From positions 64,001 to 128,000 of the forward strand of contig CAVUWD010000019.1 of NCBI GenBank assembly GCA_963745025.1: 64,000 bases of DNA, read 5' to 3'. The translations under genes were made by a program, and so were the position numbers. This stretch comes from an uncultured delta proteobacterium. Lineage in GTDB: Bacteria; Desulfobacterota; Binatia; JACPRU01. The notes under the pieces are model-generated. The model was not told the origin of the DNA. It saw only the letters and a program-made list of their open reading frames with translations, and ran no database searches. Below are positions 43,111-52,668 of this stretch, piece after piece; the first letter of the stretch is position 1; every line of letters starts with the position of its first letter.

Positions 43111-43642
43111 GTGAATCAAGAGAGGGTGAGGGTGCTCGGAATCGACCCGGGCACCTCGGTGACAGGGTGGGGGGTGGTGGAGCCCGCGGGGCGGCGTTTC
43201 GCCACGTCGCGAGCGGCACCGTGGGGCTATCCGCCCGGTTGCCTCTCGGCGAGCGGCTGCGCCGAATCCGCGCTGCGGTCGAAGATCTCTGCCGAGCGCA
43301 CGCACCGATCGCGGTCGCACTCGAAAAGGCGTTCGTCGCGCACAACGTGCAGAGCGCCTTCCGCCTCGGCGAGGCCCGCGGCGCCGTGCTCATCGCGGCC
43401 GCCGAGGCCGGACTGCCGGTCTTCGAGTACGCTCCCGCGCAAGTGAAGCTGACGGTCGTCGGCTACGGACGCGCCGACAAGCAACAGATGGTGCGCGGCA
43501 TCGCGCTGCGCCTCGGCGTTCCGCCGGCCGAGCAAGCGATGAGGCGGACGCGCTGGCGCTCGCGCTCTGTCACCTGATCGGCGCGCGGCTGCGCGTACCC
43601 GAGCGCGCGCCTGCGCGACGCCGTGGCGGGGCGGCGCTGTGA
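43111..43642 (+). CDS. ruvC: Holliday junction resolvase RuvC (apparent frameshifts)
   Basis: [37 protein letters not shown] and DALALALCH across three frames. Confidence 0.9.
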
Positions 43643-44230
43643 TCGCGCGCCTACGAGGACGGCTTTGTGACCGGACGGCGGAGGAGGTGGTCGTCGACGT
43701 CGCCGGCGTCGGTTATCAGGTCTACGCGTCCGCGCAGACGCTGGCGGCGCTTCCCGGCGAGGGCAGCGAGGTCGATTTGCTGATCGTCACCCACCTGCGC
43801 GACGACGCGCTCCAGCTCTTCGGCTTCGCCGACGCAGCCGAACGGACGCTCTTCCAGCTTCTCCACTCGGTATCCGGAATCGGCCCTCGCCTGGCCTTGA
43901 ACATCCTCTCGGGAATGCCGGTCGCCGAGCTTCGCGAGGCGATCCGCCGCCGCGATCTCGTTCGCCTGCACGCGCATCCCCGGCGTCGGCAAGAAGACCG
44001 CCGAACGCCTGTCGGTCGAGCTCGCCGACAAGCTCGCCGCGCTTCCCGAGGAGCGTCCCGTGCGACGCGACGGAACGGCGCACGGCGTCGCGGAGCAGGC
44101 CGTTTCGGCGCTCGTCAATCTCGGCTTCCGACCGGCCGAGGCCGAGCACGCCGTCGAAGCCGCGATGGGGGCCGGTCTCATGGCGTTCGAGGAAGTGGTT
44201 CGCGAAGCGCTGCGGAGCACCCGGCGATGA
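43639..44230 (+). CDS. ruvA: RuvA (apparent frameshift near 43970)
   Basis: [36 protein letters not shown] and SALVNLGF. Confidence 0.92.
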
Positions 44231-45261
44231 CGCGCATCCGCGCGCGTTCGGGAGCGCTCGGCCCCGCCGCGCTCGACGACGACCGGGTCGTCGACCAATC
44301 GCTCCGTCCACTGCGCTTCGACGAGTACGTCGGCCAGGAGCGCGTGAAGGAGAACCTTCAGCTGATGGTGACTGCGGCACGCAGCCGTGGCGAGGTGCTC
44401 GACCATCTGCTCTTCCACGGCCCTCCGGGGCTCGGCAAGACCTCGCTCGCGCATCTGATCGCGCGCGAGATGGGGGTCAACATTCGCACCACCTCGGGAC
44501 CGATGATCGAGCGTGCCGGTGACCTGGCAGCGATCCTCACGAGCCTGGAGCCGCACGACGTGTTCTTCATCGACGAAGTCCATCGACTGAACCGGCTGAT
44601 CGAGGAAGTCCTCTATCCGGCGATGGAGGACTTCAAGCTCGACCTCGTGATCGGGCACGGTCCGGGCGCGAGCATGTCGAAGATTCCTCTGCAGCCCTTC
44701 ACCTGATCGCCGCGACCACTCGCGCGGGCCTGCTCTCGGCGCCGCTACGCAATCGGTTCGGCAATGATTTCCGGCTCGATTTCTACACGCAGGCGGAGCT
44801 CGAACGAATCCTCGCACGCTCGGCGCGCATCCTGTCGCGTGCGACTCGAAGCGGACGGCGCCGCGGAGATCGCCCGCCGCTCGCGCGGTACGCCGCGCAT
44901 CGCCAATCGGCTGCTCCGGCGGGTTCGTGACTTCGCGGAGGTGCGCGCGGACGGCGTCATCCGCTTGTCGGTCGCCCGGGACGCGCTGAAGCTTCTCGAC
45001 GTCGACGACATCGGCTTCGACCCGATGGACCGAACGCTGCTGCTCACGATCATCGACAAGTTCGACGGCGGGCCGGTCGGCATCGATACGCTGGCCGCCT
45101 CGATCGGAGAGGAGCGCGACACGCTCGAGGACGTCTACGAGCCGTACCTGTTGCAGATCGGATTCCTGCAGAGGACTCCGAAGGGCCGAGTTGCAACGTC
45201 GAGCGCGCGGCGGCATCTTGGCAGAGAACCCCGCAAGGGACCGCAGGGAGGCCTGTTTTGA
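44227..45261 (+). CDS. ruvB: RuvB (apparent frameshifts 44700-44840)
   Basis: [40 protein letters not shown] and EPYLLQIG. Confidence 0.94.
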
Positions 45262-45563: not shown

Positions 45564-47790
45564 GTGACGACGTTGAACACCAACGAAACCAACCCGATCG
45601 AGGCCGAGGGCATCGCCGATGCGCGCGTCCGCCGTCGCGATGCCTGGCTGATCGCCATCGTCGCGATCGGCGTGTTTCTCTTCGCCGTCTTCGAGGCGCG
45701 ACTGCCGCAATTTTCGAGCGCGCAGTCGTTGATGAATCACCTCACGTTCTTCCTGCTCATCAACCTGAACGTGCTGCTGCTCGTCGTCTTCGCCTTCCTG
45801 GTGGTGCGGAATCTCGTCAAGCTCATGTTCGAGCGCCGCCAGCAGATTCTCGGCTCGCACCTTCGCACGCGCCTGGTGGTCGCCTTCGTCGGGCTTTCAC
45901 TTTCTCCCGCGGTGCTGCTGTTCATCGCGTCGACGAACTTCATGGACAACTCGATCGAGAAGTGGTTCGACGTACAAGTCGAGCAATCGCTCGAGGGCTC
46001 GCACGACGTGGTGCAGGCCTTCTACAAAGGGACCGCGGAGTCGATGCAGGCCCGCTCACGCGAGATCGCGGATACGCTCGCCACCCGAGGGCTGATCGCG
46101 CCCGAGCGACGCGCGGAGCTCCATCGCTTGCTCGAAGCGCGCCGGGCCCAGGCGGGGGTCAGTGCGGTGCAGATCTTTTCGCCAGCCCGAGAGCTCCTGA
46201 GCGTCGCGTTCTCGCCGTCCGCCGTGGGCGGCATCACTGTGGCGCCCGATAGCGAAGCATTCGAGCATCTGCTCGCGGGAGAGAGCCTGATGCGCGTCGA
46301 GCCCCTCGGAGATGGCGACGTTGTGCGCGGAGCCTCTCCCGTTCTCGATCATGGCCGCGTGATCGCCGCGGTGGCCATGGACCAATACATCCCGGTCAGC
46401 CTCTCGCATCGCGCCGAGGACATCGAACGCTCGTTCCGGGAATACCGCGAGCTGAAGATTCTCAAGCAACCGATCAAGAACACCTATCTGCTGACGCTCA
46501 CGCTGATCACGCTCGTCGTGGTGTTCGCCGCCACCTGGTACGGATTGTCGCTCGCCAAGAGCATCACCGTGCCCATCCAGCAGCTCGCCGAGGGCACGCG
46601 GGAGGTCGCGCACGGGAACTGGGACGTTCACATCGAGGGCGCGGGTGGGGACGAGATCGGCACCCTAGTGTCCGCGTTCAATCAGATGACCGGCGACCTC
46701 AAGAAGTTCAATACCGAGATCGAGGAGAGGCGCCGCCACATGGAGACGATTCTCGCCAACATCCGCGCCGGCGTCGTCTCGGTGTCTCCGGACGGTACCA
46801 TCACCACGTGGAACGCCGCGGCCGAGCACCTGTTCGGCATCTCGGCGCGCCAGGCGCGTGGCCGGCGGGCGGTCGAGGTGCTCACCGGTACCACGCTGGC
46901 ACCCGTGCGGGAGATGCTCGACCAGCTGCTCGCGACCGGTGCGACCCAGGGTGAACGCCAGGTCGAGGTGGTGCACGCCGAGGAGGCATTCACGCTGCTC
47001 GCAGCGGCTGCGCCGCTGCGGGATCCCGGCTCGCCGATCGACGGACCCCATGGCGCGGTGCTCTTCTTCGAGGACATCACGCAGATCCTCCAGGTGCAGC
47101 GAATGGAGGCCTGGCGCGAGGTCGCGCGGCGCATCGCGCACGAGATCAAGAATCCGCTCACGCCGATCCAGCTCTCGGCCCAGCGCCTGCAGAAGCGCTA
47201 CGCCCAGCTCCTCCGCGACGACGTGTTCGACGAGTGTACGCAGGACGATCATCAAGCAGGTCGATGACCTGAAGGCCCTGGTGAACGAGTTCTCGAGCTT
47301 CGCGCGCATGCCCACCGGGCACCATCGCCCCGAGGATCTGAACGGTCTCGTCGAGGAGGCCGTCGTCCTCTTCCGCGAGGGGCACCGGAAGATCCGCTTC
47401 GACGTGCGCACGGACCCGAGCCTGCCGCCTCTGATGCTCGACCGCGAGGGCGTCAAGCGAGCACTCATCAACATGCTCGACAACGCCGTCGCGGCTTGTG
47501 CCAACGGCCACGCGCAGGGGGGGCGGATCGAGATCACGACGTCGTATCTGCAGTCGCTCGGCCTGGTTCGCCTCGAGCTCGCCGACAACGGCTCGGGAAT
47601 GACGCCCGAGGTGAAGGCGCGGCTTTTCGAGCCCTACTTCTCGACGAAGAAGGACGGTACGGGTCTCGGCCTGGCGATCGTTTCGGCGATCTTCTCCGAT
47701 CACCGCGCCTTCATCCGCGTGCGCGACAACGAACCGAAGGGGAGTCGATTCATCGTCGAATTTCCGGTAAAAGAGCCGGTTGATGGCTGA
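45564..47790 (+). CDS. ntrY: NtrY-like sensor histidine kinase (TM-HAMP-PAS-HisKA-HATPase; one apparent frameshift near 47240)
   Basis: GSHLRTRLV, AWREVARRIAHEIKNPLTPIQLSAQRL, LVNEFSSFARMP, DNGSG and GTGLGL. Confidence 0.9.
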
Positions 47791-49050
47791 GACGATCCTG
47801 ATCGTCGACGACGAGGAGCAGATCCGCGCCAGCGTACGCGGGGTGCTCGCGGACGAGGGCTTCCGTGTGCTCGAGGCGGACAACGGGCGAACCGCGCTCG
47901 CGGTGATCGCCGCGGAGCACCCGCGGCTCGTCCTCGTCGACATCTGGATGCCCGAGGTCGATGGCGTCGAGATTCTGCGCGAGATCCAGAAGCGTCATCC
48001 TGGAACCCGAGTCGTCGTCATCTCCGGGCACGGAAACATCGAGACGGCCGTGCGCGCCACCCAACTCGGAGCGATCGACTTCATCGAGAAGCCATTTTCG
48101 ATCGAGCGCCTGCTGCAGCGGATCGAGCGCGCGCTCGGGTCACCGGCCGCCCGACTGCTGGAAGACGAGGCGGTCGCGACGGCGTCTCCACTGCGCGCGC
48201 CGGCGACTCCCGTCGGCCGCACCTCGCGCGCCGCACGCTCGCGCGCAGCGTGGTGGTCAACGGCCAGGGGCTCCACTCCGGCATCCGCACCGGCCTCATT
48301 CTCCATCCGGCGCCTCCGGGAACGGCAGTCGTCTTCGAGACCATCTCGGCCGACGTCGAGATCCCCGCGCTCGTCTACTACGTCGAGTCGACGGGCTACG
48401 CGACGACTCTCTTCCGCGACGGCGTGGTCGCCCAGACGGTCGAGCATCTAATGGCGACGCTGCACGCGTTCGGCATCGCGAACCTGCGGATCCGAATGCA
48501 AGGGGAGATTCCCATCCTCGACGGCTCTGCCATAGAATTCTGCGACCTCGTCGAATCGGGGGGCATCGAGCCCCAGGAGGAGGAGATCGAGGAGCTCGTC
48601 GTCGACCGCCGGGTAGCGATCGGCGATCCGGAAACCGGAAAGTACATCGCGCTCGAGCCCTGCGACGGATTCGAGGTGGACTACACGCTCGAGTATCCTC
48701 CACCGGTCGGGCGTGAGCACGTCGTCTACAAGCACGGCGGTGCCGACACGTTCCGCACCGAGATCGCTCCGGCGCGCACGTTCGGGTTCGTGAAGGACAT
48801 CGCTGCGCTCGAGCAAATGGGCCTCGCGGGCGGCGGACGCTTGCACAACTGCATCCTGATCGGCGACGACGGCGTCGTCAACACCCGCCTTCGACTCGAT
48901 TGTGAGTTCGTGCGGCACAAGATTCTCGACATCATGGGAGATTTTTTCTTGCTCGGCCGCCCCATTCGCGGTCGCGTCGTCGCGCGGATGACGGGTCACG
49001 GCGACAACATCGCGCTTCTCAAGCAAATCGATCAGCAGCTGGCGGACTAG
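47783..49050 (+). CDS. lpxC: NtrX-type receiver domain apparently fused to UDP-3-O-acyl-GlcNAc deacetylase (one-base frame break near 48230)
   Basis: Receiver: ILIVDDE, DIWMP, SGHGNIETAV, EKPF. LpxC: RTLARSVVVNGQGLHSG, TVEHL, EIPILDGSA, ARTFGF, RHKILDIMGD, GHGDN. The confidence applies to the domains; the fusion is inferred. Confidence 0.85.
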
Positions 49051-49250
49051 ACTCGATCGAGATTTCCGTCGACGCCAGGCGCGGCGCTCGGAAAGCCCTC
49101 AGTTTTCGCCACACGCGCTGGAAATTCGTGAAGCGCTGGATCTTCCGGTTGGCCCGTACTCGGGTCGACCGGAAGAGCCAGCCACCGCGCGCAAGCGCGG
49201 AGAGTAATAGACCAGCTCGTGGGTTATTGTCTTCCGCGCTCCGCGCGGTT

Positions 49251-49769: not shown

Positions 49770-50666
49770 TCAGCGGACGCGCAACGCGTTCAACGGCCCG
49801 TAGAGCGTGAACGAATAGGATCCGCTCGCCGCCTTCTGGTTGTGATTCAGCAGGGTCAGCAGCGGCTCGAACCCCGCGGGCGCTCCCGGAATCGGTTTCA
49901 CGTTGAGTACGGCATTGACGACCGGCATCTGGTTCGCGCTCAGCAGGAAGAGCTGACCATGTAGCTCGGCGTCTACCTCGGAGCCGGAGAGCTTGAGTGA
50001 GCGAACGTCCAGCCTCCCTGCCTTCAACTCGAATTCGGCCTCGCCGTTGGCGAAATGAAGATCGGGAATGGTGAATCCCTGCGCCTTGGCTTGCGTGAGG
50101 GACGCGCTCTTCAAGCCGAGCTTGCCGCGGCCCTCGAGATTCTTGAGCTCGCCGCGGCCGCTGAAGTGAATGTCTCCCGAGAGTGTTCCCTCCCAGTTGC
50201 CCTCGAGCAGCGCCGTGAGTCGCGGATACTGGGAAAGCCGGACCTCGTTCCAGGAGAGCCCGAGTGCTCCGGATGGATCGACGGAGCCGGTGAAGTCACC
50301 ACCGTATGCCCGACCCGAAAAATAGAAGGGGAAGCCATCACGGCCGAGCGATGGCCGGAAGGCGACTTCCGCGGCGGCGAACCACGGGTCGGTATCCTTT
50401 CCCGGCGCGATCAGGCGCGGCTGCGACAAGTGGTAGCCGTTCCACGGGCGCAACCACACTTCATCATAGTGGATTCGCCAGCCGGATTGGGCGGCGATCT
50501 CGTCGGTCCAGCGCCGGACGATGAGGTCGTGCGGGAACGTCAGCGCGAAGAACAGAACGAACCAGCCGACCGTCCACGCGGCGTAGCCGAGGGACGACCG
50601 GCCGGGGTATCGCCGGGGAAAGAAGCGGCCGAACCTGCCGGCGAAGCTCGCGATCGAGGAGCTCAT
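49770..50666 (-). CDS. gspN: Type II secretion protein GspN
   Basis: N-terminal TM followed by LTFPHD, beta-rich; last gene of the gsp operon. Confidence 0.8.
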   Translation of the reverse strand: MSSSIASFAGRFGRFFPRRYPGRSSLGYAAWTVGWFVLFFALTFPHDLIVRRWTDEIAAQSGWRIHYDEVWLRPWNGYHLSQPRLIAPGKDTDPWFAAAEVAFRPSLGRDGFPFYFSGRAYGGDFTGSVDPSGALGLSWNEVRLSQYPRLTALLEGNWEGTLSGDIHFSGRGELKNLEGRGKLGLKSASLTQAKAQGFTIPDLHFANGEAEFELKAGRLDVRSLKLSGSEVDAELHGQLFLLSANQMPVVNAVLNVKPIPGAPAGFEPLLTLLNHNQKAASGSYSFTLYGPLNALRVR

Positions 50667-50671
50667 GCGTG

Positions 50672-51232
50672 TCAGCTCGCTGCCTTGATGCTGACGCGGG
50701 ACACCGCGAAGGTGACGTCGAACTGAGAGGGATCGGCGCCCCGCTTCTTCATCTGCAAGCGCGACACGTGAAGGGCGGCCGGCGACCGCTCGAGCTCATG
50801 GAGCAGCTCGACCGTCTGCTGCAGCGTGATTCCGACGAGCTGGACGTTGACGGCTTCTTCGACGTATTGATCCCCGATCGTCTTCGGGGAAGACGGCGCC
50901 ATCGACGCGACCCTGTCGCGGCTGACCTTCTTGGTGACGATACCATCGAGCGTGGAGTAGAGCCCGTTCGCCCCAGCGTCCTTGCTCGTGAGCGCGTCGG
51001 TCTGGCGTTTCAGGTCAAGGAAGACCCCGCGGAACGACTCCACCTGCTCCAACTGATGCTGCTTGGCGACGATTCGAGTTCGCAGCGCGCTCTTCACCGC
51101 TTGGGCCTTGTAGACGATCAGGAATACGAGGAAGCTCGCGAAAACCGCGCCGCCGATTGCGACGAACAGACGCTCCCGGGGTGCCAGCCGCGCGAAGGCA
51201 TGCTGGAGGTTGGCGAGCGAGAGCCACCTCAT
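50672..51232 (-). CDS. gspM: Type II secretion protein GspM
   Basis: LAPRER-TM-coiled coil; operon position. Confidence 0.82.
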   Translation of the reverse strand: MRWLSLANLQHAFARLAPRERLFVAIGGAVFASFLVFLIVYKAQAVKSALRTRIVAKQHQLEQVESFRGVFLDLKRQTDALTSKDAGANGLYSTLDGIVTKKVSRDRVASMAPSSPKTIGDQYVEEAVNVQLVGITLQQTVELLHELERSPAALHVSRLQMKKRGADPSQFDVTFAVSRVSIKAAS

Positions 51233-52668
51233 CCCTCGGATCCTTTCCCCAAGAGCAAATTCATCCGGAATTCGACCTTGCCGTCCGCAGTCGTGCGCGG
51301 CTCCTTGACCTGCACCTCGCCGAAGAGCGGTGATTCGGCGATCTTCTTCCGGATGGTCTCCACGGCCTCGAACGACGAGGTCTTGGCCCGCAAGTGGACG
51401 CCGTCGACATCGATCGCCAGCTCGTCGACGTTCATGCGGGGCTCGGTGGGGGCGTGCTCGGAGATCTGCCGCAAGATCTCGAGCGGTGAAACCGGACCCG
51501 TCGGGCCGAAACCCAGTTGTTGCTGCTGCTTCTGGAGCCTCTTGATCTCCTGCTGGAGTTGCTCCGCTTCGTCGACGACTGGGGTGTTTGGCAACGCTTC
51601 GTGAAACGCCTGGCGGACGATGTCGCGAAGCTCGTCGTACTGACGGGATAGCTGATAATAGGAGACACCCTGCCAGAGAGCGAACGACACGAGGACGACG
51701 GCGGAGAGCACCGCGAGGCGCGTCACCGTTCCCTGCATCTGCTCTTGGCCGCGCCGATACGAGAACGACTCGCGGCGGAAATTCAGACCGAGCGTCGGCG
51801 CGTCGGCGATCCCCCGCAGCGCGAGGCCGAGCGCCGGAGCATAGGTCCCTTGGCGGCCGTGTAGCGCCGCTGGAACCTGACGGAGCGGAAGGTCTTCGAG
51901 TCGCTGGACGGTGAGGCCGACTTGGCTGCGTAGCAACTCGAGCAGCTCTGGTCCCGACGAGCCTCCGACCAGCAACGCCCGAAGCTCGACGTCATGCCCG
52001 CTCGGGGGCCCGCCGTTGAGGCTCTTGAGGCTCCAGACGATCTCACGGAGGAACGCAGGCACCGGCGGCTCACCCGCCACGTCGATCACTCTCAGGTGCT
52101 CGAGCTGACCGCTGCGGTAGATCGCGAACGTGCCGCGTGCGCCGCTCACGTGAAGGAAGGCGTAGCGCTCCGGTCGATCGCCCTCGAACAGTTGGAGCAC
52201 GTTCAGGGTGGTGAGCGGCGCGAAGTCGACCACCGCGGGATCGAGTCCCGCCTCGGCAAGAATCTTCAGGTGATCGTCGATCCGAGATTTCGGTGCCAGC
52301 GCGGCGAACACCCGCGTGCCGTCAGCCGTCTTATTGAGAACCTGGAAATCGACGATCGCCTCATCGACGGCGAACGGGACCTGGCTCTCGAGCTCGAAGG
52401 GGACGGTTTGCTGAAGCTTCCGCCAGTCGCGGAACGGCAGCTCGAGAAACCGGTAGACGGCAGCGTCTCCGGGGAGGGCCGACAGCACCGTGTCCGCGGT
52501 CATGGGATGGCGGGATACGAAGTTCCTCAGTTGCTCACCCAATTGCACGGTGGGGTCCCGAGGCTCGGAGAAGTACCCGACGATCTGATAGCTGCGGAAG
52601 CTCGTCTCGACGACCACCGCGACCAGCTGGGAGCCATGCGGGTCGAGTGCCAGGATCCGATTCGGCAT
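51229..52668 (-). CDS. gspL: Type II secretion protein GspL
   Basis: RILALD, LELPF, VPFELESQVPF and LNFRR; actin-like plus periplasmic domains. Confidence 0.85.
   Translation of the reverse strand: MPNRILALDPHGSQLVAVVVETSFRSYQIVGYFSEPRDPTVQLGEQLRNFVSRHPMTADTVLSALPGDAAVYRFLELPFRDWRKLQQTVPFELESQVPFAVDEAIVDFQVLNKTADGTRVFAALAPKSRIDDHLKILAEAGLDPAVVDFAPLTTLNVLQLFEGDRPERYAFLHVSGARGTFAIYRSGQLEHLRVIDVAGEPPVPAFLREIVWSLKSLNGGPPSGHDVELRALLVGGSSGPELLELLRSQVGLTVQRLEDLPLRQVPAALHGRQGTYAPALGLALRGIADAPTLGLNFRRESFSYRRGQEQMQGTVTRLAVLSAVVLVSFALWQGVSYYQLSRQYDELRDIVRQAFHEALPNTPVVDEAEQLQQEIKRLQKQQQQLGFGPTGPVSPLEILRQISEHAPTEPRMNVDELAIDVDGVHLRAKTSSFEAVETIRKKIAESPLFGEVQVKEPRTTADGKVEFRMNLLLGKGSEG

Follow-up and report, generated by a model that had tools for sequence, protein, structure and literature searches.

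Is the LpxC of an uncultured bacterium of the class Binatia, the enzyme of the committed step in making lipid A, made as one protein with a two-component receiver? The question is raised by a stretch of 64,000 nucleotides, here called the window (contig CAVUWD010000019.1, positions 64,001 to 128,000, of assembly GCA_963745025.1, an uncultured delta proteobacterium; all coordinates below are those of the window). In it, a gene for an NtrY-like sensor kinase is followed on the same strand by a receiver and then by an LpxC domain, and the last two are assembled in different frames. The initial annotation, made from the letters and their translations, had read them as one interrupted gene and had suggested that a membrane sensor could switch LpxC activity by phosphorylation. 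We find that receiver and LpxC almost certainly form one real fused gene, a conclusion drawn from comparison of this locus with those of its relatives, and that control of the enzyme by the receiver is a plausible, if less secure, reading of what the fusion is for.

The receiver gene runs from 47780 or 47783 to 48451, and the ATG at 47783 overlaps the stop codon of the kinase (47788-47790) by 8 nucleotides. Its match to the receiver profile PF00072 scores 114.3 bits, against a cut-off of 30.2, and covers positions 1-111 of 111; Response_reg was the sole Pfam match in this gene, and neither an AAA+ nor an HTH domain was matched. Past the linker the receiver frame runs into nonsense. The LpxC profile (PF03331) is matched in a second frame with 259.8 bits, against a cut-off of 27. 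The match begins at base 48229 (residue 44 when the frame is translated from 48100), and the stop lies at 49048-49050. The first start codon available in the LpxC frame, GTG at 48250, lies 7 codons inside the profile. The motifs TVEHL, RHKILD..GD and TGHGDN are all present. The initial annotation had described a receiver overlapping the ntrY stop and free of AAA+ and HTH domains, an Ala/Pro linker of about 30 residues, an LpxC N terminus lying upstream of the first available GTG, and intact zinc and catalytic motifs, and each of these features was recovered.

We then compared the locus with 40 genomes from 14 families of the same class; since these are relatives, counts across them are not independent. 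Among 30 loci fetched, tblastn places receiver and LpxC in the same frame in 28, the exceptions being the window itself and the same-genus genome G001. In 28 of the 29 relatives' loci the two domains form a single open reading frame (ORF) of 415-454 residues, with a start codon just before the receiver; one of these, L018, contains an internal double frame slip inside LpxC. Every one of the 40 relatives has one LpxC locus, and the two genomes with more than one match carry pieces of a single locus. The genome of the window gave 1 LpxC match in 5.65 Mb at a completeness of 92.65%, and no second, stand-alone LpxC was found there. The best 120 matches among 5.8 billion database proteins all combine PF03331 with PF00072, in 357-438 residues, and those that are named carry the title 'UDP-3-O-acyl-N-acetylglucosamine deacetylase [Candidatus Binatia bacterium]', with the receiver unmentioned. 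In the ESM Atlas, 17 clusters of at least 50 members have the receiver plus LpxC architecture; their labels, which derive from metagenome-assembled genomes (MAGs) and set no firm range, are Binatota, Thermodesulfobacteriota, Nitrospinota (for a longer form, described below) and Acidobacteriota.

The initial annotation had also put the locus forward as a candidate for an undescribed system. This stands in so far as no publication on the fusion was found: it is not described in the literature searched, which comprised titles and abstracts and did not reach subscription-only work such as censuses of response-regulator output domains, and the terms 'response regulator', 'receiver' and 'fusion' are absent from the available text of two recent reviews of LpxC control (PMC12444477 and PMC13333357). 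It does not stand for the architecture itself, of which thousands of examples are held in public databases, annotated simply as LpxC. The fusion is a variant that is visible in databases but unstudied, not a new kind. In one record titled Candidatus Binatia (L065), an NtrY-like kinase is accompanied by an NtrX-like receiver gene, and LpxC is absent from the 6 kb that follow downstream; some members may therefore keep a separate kinase and regulator pair.

Why, then, is the gene of the window in two frames? Contigs of near-identical sequence from four metagenome runs (X1-X4) were compared with it over 47000-49100. Only two length differences were reported, a C added behind 48230 and one letter fewer at 47241, and both close a break: the additional C joins the receiver and LpxC frames, and the shorter form at 47241 restores the frame of the kinase. 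Two contigs have the extra C: X2 record 12 spans 47910-48700, and X3 record 24, 1992 nucleotides long, spans 47130-49058 with 59 substitutions and 2 gaps (∼97% identical). A DNA alignment with a same-genus genome and three same-family genomes likewise has a one-column gap in the window only, at GCGCGC-CGCACG. The initial annotation had predicted that one added base near 48230 would join the two frames and had named 48220-48240 as the place to look; the contigs of near-identical strains from two runs, and the four relatives, have the extra C at exactly that site.

Breaks of this sort are common in the vicinity. The genes ruvC, ruvA, and ruvB stand in a row at 43111-45261 and have a frame-shifted appearance: RuvA_N and RuvA_C are in different frames, RuvB_N is in a different frame from the RuvB lid and C-terminal domains, and the ORF of RuvC is matched by its profile only from profile position 19 onward. 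Over the 5 kb upstream, housekeeping genes thus have about one break per kb, a pattern typical of indel errors left uncorrected, which suggests an indel-rich assembly. The same-genus genome G001 is also broken in the fusion gene, at other places. We conclude that the break at 48230/48231 is most probably a one-base deletion introduced by assembly. A programmed frameshift was considered and dropped, as relatives and near-identical strains are plainly in frame. The coordinates of the features are collected in Table 1.

Table 1. Features of the kinase and receiver-LpxC locus in the window
Feature	Position	Strand	Remarks
NtrY-like sensor histidine kinase	45564..47790	+	Pfam domains: transmembrane N-terminal region, HAMP, PAS, HisKA, HATPase_c
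Indel breaking the kinase frame	47241	+	Near-identical strains one base shorter (1 contig each, runs X2 and X3)
Receiver (REC) domain, NtrX type	47783..48130	+	Pfam Response_reg, residues 6-116, E 4.2e-33
Ala/Pro/Arg-rich linker, ∼30 residues	48131..48228	+	Length and sequence variable among relatives
One-base deficit (CC, against CCC in relatives and near-identical strains), dividing the receiver frame from the LpxC frame	48230..48231	+	
Complete LpxC (UDP-3-O-acyl-GlcNAc deacetylase) domain, stop included	48229..49050	+	Pfam LpxC, profile 1-266 of 268, E 3.8e-77

The kinase gene is itself assembled in two frames, a break that was absent from the initial annotation and is added here. The piece at 45564-47267 matches sCache_3_2, HAMP, PAS, and the beginning of HisKA, and the piece at 46858-47790, in the other frame, matches HATPase_c. 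NtrY_N was not matched at E≤0.001 in the broken kinase ORF of the window; in the intact orthologous kinases L130 and L033 it scores 29.1 and 29.4 bits, above its cut-off of 23.2, and is accompanied by HAMP, PAS, HisKA, and HATPase_c. Homology between the kinase of the window and the one upstream of alphaproteobacterial NtrX extends over the full length, and full-length homologues lie directly 5' of the regulator in most of the loci, found with the receiver, that contain a regulator only (L059-L110), the alphaproteobacterial cases among them being records of Mesorhizobium, Bradyrhizobium, and Methylocapsa. The name NtrY-like, given to the kinase at the outset, appears appropriate. The expected synteny was also found: the C-terminal part of the kinase is directly upstream of the fusion in 30/30 loci of the window's class, with L004 ending at a contig edge. 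The distance from kinase stop to receiver start ranges from -44 to +122 nucleotides in 28 loci and is -8 in the closest three, the same as in the window. No second kinase of the NtrY-like type was found in the window's genome at E≤1e-30. Over the H-box region of the kinase (47071-47212), summed contig depth is very high in all four runs, up to 6742; this is no copy-number signal, because contigs of many other organisms match the conserved stretch.

The receiver, too, points to the NtrY/NtrX family. For the 417-residue orthologue L005, which also serves for residue numbering below, the best NCBIfam response-regulator match of the receiver is NtrX, at 135 bits against 104 for the next model, in keeping with the NtrX-type assignment made initially. 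To place the fusion in a wider context, we used a phylum sample of 201 genomes, G000 included. In 24 relatives a single in-frame match spans both domains, and 23 more have the same type of LpxC (48-56% identical, E≤4e-77) in open frames of 450-837 residues, so that, counting G000, LpxC of the fused type occurs in 48/201 genomes. The remainder have an ordinary LpxC in frames of about 280-390 residues or are unmatched at E≤1e-40. Twelve of the 23 were inspected and comprise six short fusions with long linkers and six long forms, of 685-742 residues, with the domain order Response_reg, Sigma54_activat, AAA_lid_14, and LpxC. A search of genome contigs with the receiver motif gave, among the matches listed, at least one full-length fusion (L032) and at least one long form (L033); the latter contains HTH_8 as well, and an NtrY-like kinase overlaps its start. 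The long forms (L111, L112, L113, L114, L115, L116, L117, and L033) resemble a transcription factor joined to an enzyme. The Atlas cluster of the long form has 381 members, most often labelled Nitrospinota.

In the long forms, NtrX is again the top NCBIfam match, from position 3 to 452 of 452, with 251-258 bits. The cut-off of the NtrX equivalog NF051870, 600 bits, is missed by these and by the short form, whose 135 bits come from the receiver only; on these profile matches the protein is NtrX-derived and is not an NtrX. The GAFTGA motif is absent from 8/8 long forms and from 7/7 alphaproteobacterial NtrX proteins, and is present in 6/6 of the best other NtrC-family regulators of the window's genome. 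The Walker B Glu, kept by all 7 alphaproteobacterial NtrX proteins, was not seen at that place in the 8 long forms when the sequences were read by eye, and the AAA+ domain of the long forms therefore looks decayed. An NtrX-family search of the window's genome returned 26 generic NtrC-family regulators, none above the cut-off, and is silent on the existence of a separate NtrX.

A tree of 93 LpxC domains was built with a fast method and Shimodaira-Hasegawa-like approximate likelihood ratio test (SH-aLRT) support; it is unrooted and omits L018 (frame slips), L003 (broken), and L121 (cut by a contig end). A long branch (length 0.78, SH-aLRT 99) separates all 48 fused LpxC domains from the 45 stand-alone domains. 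Of the 48, 28 belong to the Binatia-like class, the window included, 12 are other short forms, and 8 are long forms. Members of the Binatia-like class group together among the fused domains (support 96), and long and short forms are interleaved. We infer that the fusion arose once, probably as an NtrX-LpxC protein, from which AAA+ and HTH were then lost, perhaps repeatedly. Two genomes, G074 (contigs C11 and C33) and G234 (C52 and C232), hold both a fusion and an ordinary stand-alone LpxC, which may be real redundancy or contamination of the bins, reported as 1% and 5%.

Both halves of the fusion look functional by their residues and predicted fold. Across 39 short fusions, the receiver shows no variation in its acidic pair (D9 and D10), its phospho-acceptor (D53), or the Lys at K103; S81 is retained in at least 90%. 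The zinc-binding and catalytic residues of LpxC (the pair E216 and H217, then H374, K375, D378, and D382, and the catalytic His H401) are invariant in the same 39 fusions and present in the window. L005 scores 238.7 bits with TIGR00325, above the cut-off of 187.25. Its AlphaFold2 model has a mean predicted local distance difference test score (pLDDT) of 88.6 and a predicted template modelling score (pTM) of 0.88, and pLDDT falls below 50 only in the linker (121-138) and in a short loop (345-347). When the C-terminal domain of the model was compared with the PDB, it matched LpxC from P. aeruginosa and A. aeolicus, with E ∼1e-32, a target TM score of 0.85-0.94, and a root mean square deviation mostly of 1.6-2.2 Å. 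Such a pTM, reached by a chain of two domains, hints that the receiver packs on the enzyme in a defined way; this model-based hint is not used as support here. A complex prediction of the receiver (1-122) with the LpxC domain (143-417) scored 0.02, against a mark of 0.32, and, having been run without controls, speaks neither way on docking. The invariant LpxC residues presumably include the counterparts of E. coli E78 and H265, an assignment based in part on a figure legend of PMC13333357.

How might such a protein work? We read the locus as a two-gene operon, in which a membrane-bound NtrY-like histidine kinase precedes a translationally coupled fusion of ∼420 residues, whose receiver, of the NtrX type, is connected by a flexible linker of ∼30 residues to a full LpxC deacetylase. 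The kinase would sense an envelope or redox cue and pass phosphate to the invariant Asp of the receiver (D53), and the phosphorylated receiver would alter the catalytic output of the joined LpxC, possibly by releasing or imposing steric hindrance in the manner of CheB or by dimerisation. Lipid A flux would then be set directly, with no transcription step. The invariant phospho-site residues and the operon linkage make it on balance probable that the phosphorylation state of the receiver controls LpxC activity. CheB and other receiver-enzyme regulators (REC-methylesterase, REC-GGDEF, and REC-HD-GYP) appear to share the N-terminal receiver, flexible linker, and C-terminal enzyme, and they provide a working model whereby phosphorylation would lift or impose an inhibition of the catalytic domain. 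The fusion differs from the CheB type in that its output, a zinc deacetylase, belongs to an essential biosynthetic pathway and is no signalling enzyme.

Phospho-control of LpxC gains weight because signalling by NtrYX or NtrC-family systems has been linked to lpxC in three other bacteria. According to the available text of the respective sources, loss of NtrYX in R. sphaeroides raises lpxC mRNA 8.8-fold and increases lipopolysaccharide (LPS), with no NtrX site at lpxC (PMC7240162); in C. crescentus lpxC is repressed by NtrYX (PMC12444477); and for the D. vulgaris NtrC-family regulator DVU2934, lpxC is the single mapped target (PMC3333781). The present system shares with NtrY/NtrX of alphaproteobacteria the kinase layout as seen in the intact orthologues (NtrY_N, HAMP, PAS, HisKA, and HATPase_c) and full-length kinase homology, a receiver closest to NtrX, the tightly linked order of kinase and then regulator, and, for R. 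sphaeroides and C. crescentus as described in the accessible parts of PMC7240162 and PMC12444477, a tie of the family to lpxC expression and LPS amount. NtrX differs in being a DNA-binding REC-AAA+-HTH regulator of many genes, which influences lpxC through transcription and, in R. sphaeroides, indirectly. The fusion of the window no longer has AAA+ and HTH, and a covalent link ties its receiver to the enzyme.

Several observations weigh against the proposal of a phospho-controlled fusion. Both phosphotransfer and its catalytic effect are inferred. The sequences without the break come from ∼97% identical strains and not from the assembly's own sample, and runs X1 and X4, which have no contig bridging 48230, are evidence neither way. 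Outside the window's class a kinase adjoins the fusion in only 5/21 loci (L112, L113, L114, L128, and L130), and several of the kinase-less loci have unrelated neighbours, so that operon linkage is not universal. The conserved Ser/Thr of the receiver (SGHG) reads Cys (CGHA) in L023, L025, and L031, all three members of one family. Finally, the linker, which has no conservation in the fusion alignment (columns about 155-190) and is predicted to be disordered, fits a loose tether equally well as a defined inhibitory docking.

The receiver could instead set the amount of LpxC, with phosphorylation gating proteolysis or membrane recruitment; the FtsH/LapB logic of E. coli, or that of receiver-type adaptors like RssB, would then have a two-component counterpart. 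Receiver-enzyme fusions characterised to date mostly work on catalysis, which counts against this alternative, and we consider it fairly unlikely. No degron or adaptor was identified. The long linker, predicted to be disordered, could be a site for protease initiation, and in the best-studied species LpxC is regulated via its level, as stated in the available text of PMC12444477 and PMC13333357. The genome also contains a weak LapB-like ORF with TPR repeats and a zinc ribbon, but its match, at 38 bits, is far below the cut-off of 363. This ORF (L152:1420-2457, minus strand, contig C2) encodes a 345-residue TPR protein with a C-terminal zinc ribbon, LapB-like at 38 bits where 363-430 are called for, and is possibly a distant LapB. 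PF18073, tried as a LapB probe in the same genome, proved unspecific: its top match was the zinc ribbon of RadA, the LapB-like ORF came second, and Gram-positive controls were matched too.

A second alternative, that the receiver is a phosphorylation-independent module for dimerisation, folding, or scaffolding, while the kinase signals to other regulators and the fusion has no signalling role, appears distinctly unlikely. It could draw on the many fused genes outside the class that lack an adjoining kinase, on the family with Cys in place of the conserved Ser/Thr, and on the domain decay in the long forms, in which the Walker B Glu was unseen at its place and GAFTGA is absent (8/8, as in 7/7 NtrX). 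Pseudo-receivers, however, usually lose the acidic pair, the phospho-acceptor Asp, and the Lys, and these are invariant in 39/39 fusions from distant lineages; in the window's class, moreover, the kinase always adjoins the fusion, often overlapping it, and is the genome's sole NtrY-like one at the threshold given above. That the gene is truly split or dead in this strain, as a stand-alone receiver with an LpxC truncated to start at GTG 48250, as a ribosomal frameshift, or as a pseudogene, is very improbable: the break is present in the assembly as given, G001 is also broken in the gene at other places, and the break-free contigs all come from samples other than the source, but the sole LpxC of the genome would be hit, a start at 48250 would cut the first 7 residues of the Pfam profile, all 28 other relatives, like the near-identical strains, keep one frame and so give no sign of a conserved programmed shift, and the density of breaks in the flanking housekeeping genes is that of uncorrected indels.

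If the receiver does control the catalytic activity of LpxC through phosphorylation, the consequences would reach beyond this locus. The ways in which LpxC activity is set are known in few Proteobacteria and comprise proteolysis by FtsH/LapB, possibly Lon, and binding of MurA. FtsH/LapB/YejM in E. coli acts through LpxC proteolysis, and MurA-LpxC in P. aeruginosa is a case of activation by a protein partner; neither involves phosphorylation. A receiver on the sole LpxC, served by a dedicated membrane kinase, would be a fourth and very direct mode of control, in which an envelope signal acts on the enzyme itself. A whole class of bacteria that are abundant in soil and sediment conserves the fusion, and related lineages have the full NtrX-LpxC form. 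The fusion also offers a physical basis for the puzzling connection of NtrYX with LPS levels in alphaproteobacteria, and it bears on annotation, as database entries name these proteins simply LpxC and pass over the receiver.

Two further systems invite comparison. DVU2931-DVU2934 of D. vulgaris, by its published description in the available text of PMC3333781, appears similar in being an NtrC-family two-component system aimed at lpxC, and differs in that its regulator acts by binding DNA upstream of lpxC; an operon orthologous to DVU2931-DVU2934 adjoins lpxC in S. fumaroxidans (same source). A row of lpxC, kinase, and regulator also occurs in 4/29 unfused loci examined here with ∼6 kb of flank: in L036, L045, L058, and L080 an unfused lpxC, an NtrY-like kinase, and an NtrX-like regulator follow one another on one strand. 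Two of these rows are from Acidobacteriota MAGs and the other two from MAGs labelled 'delta proteobacterium'. LpxC-FabZ (PRK13188) is the other known natural LpxC fusion and likewise ties lipid A synthesis to a second function (10.1101/2025.10.16.682753, available part); its partner is a C-terminal dehydratase rather than an N-terminal signalling domain. L005 scores 206 bits with PRK13188 on the LpxC part and falls short of the cut-off of 465.

A broader reading would treat the fusions as a 'Rosetta stone'. The ancestral and still general job of NtrY/NtrX would then be direct post-translational control of LpxC, and phosphorylated NtrX would bind LpxC, and so tune lipid A synthesis, also in bacteria that keep the genes apart, such as alphaproteobacteria, some Acidobacteriota, and the delta-proteobacterial MAGs in which lpxC-ntrY-ntrX rows occur. 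Were this so, the 'indirect' rise of LPS in ntrYX mutants would be explained; we regard the idea as unlikely.

Among the neighbouring genes, three of the kinase-less loci (L119, L126, and L032) have the fused gene followed by a convergent gene of the Asp/Glu racemase family, possibly murI, and in L119 and L032 the upstream side holds an HSP20 gene and a gene for an RpoD-like sigma factor. In the window itself, the region downstream of the fusion contains a convergent cluster on the minus strand (49770-52668) that resembles a type II secretion or pilus system, with weak matches to T2SSM, PilM_2, T2SSL, and GspL_C and a 298-residue ORF without a family.

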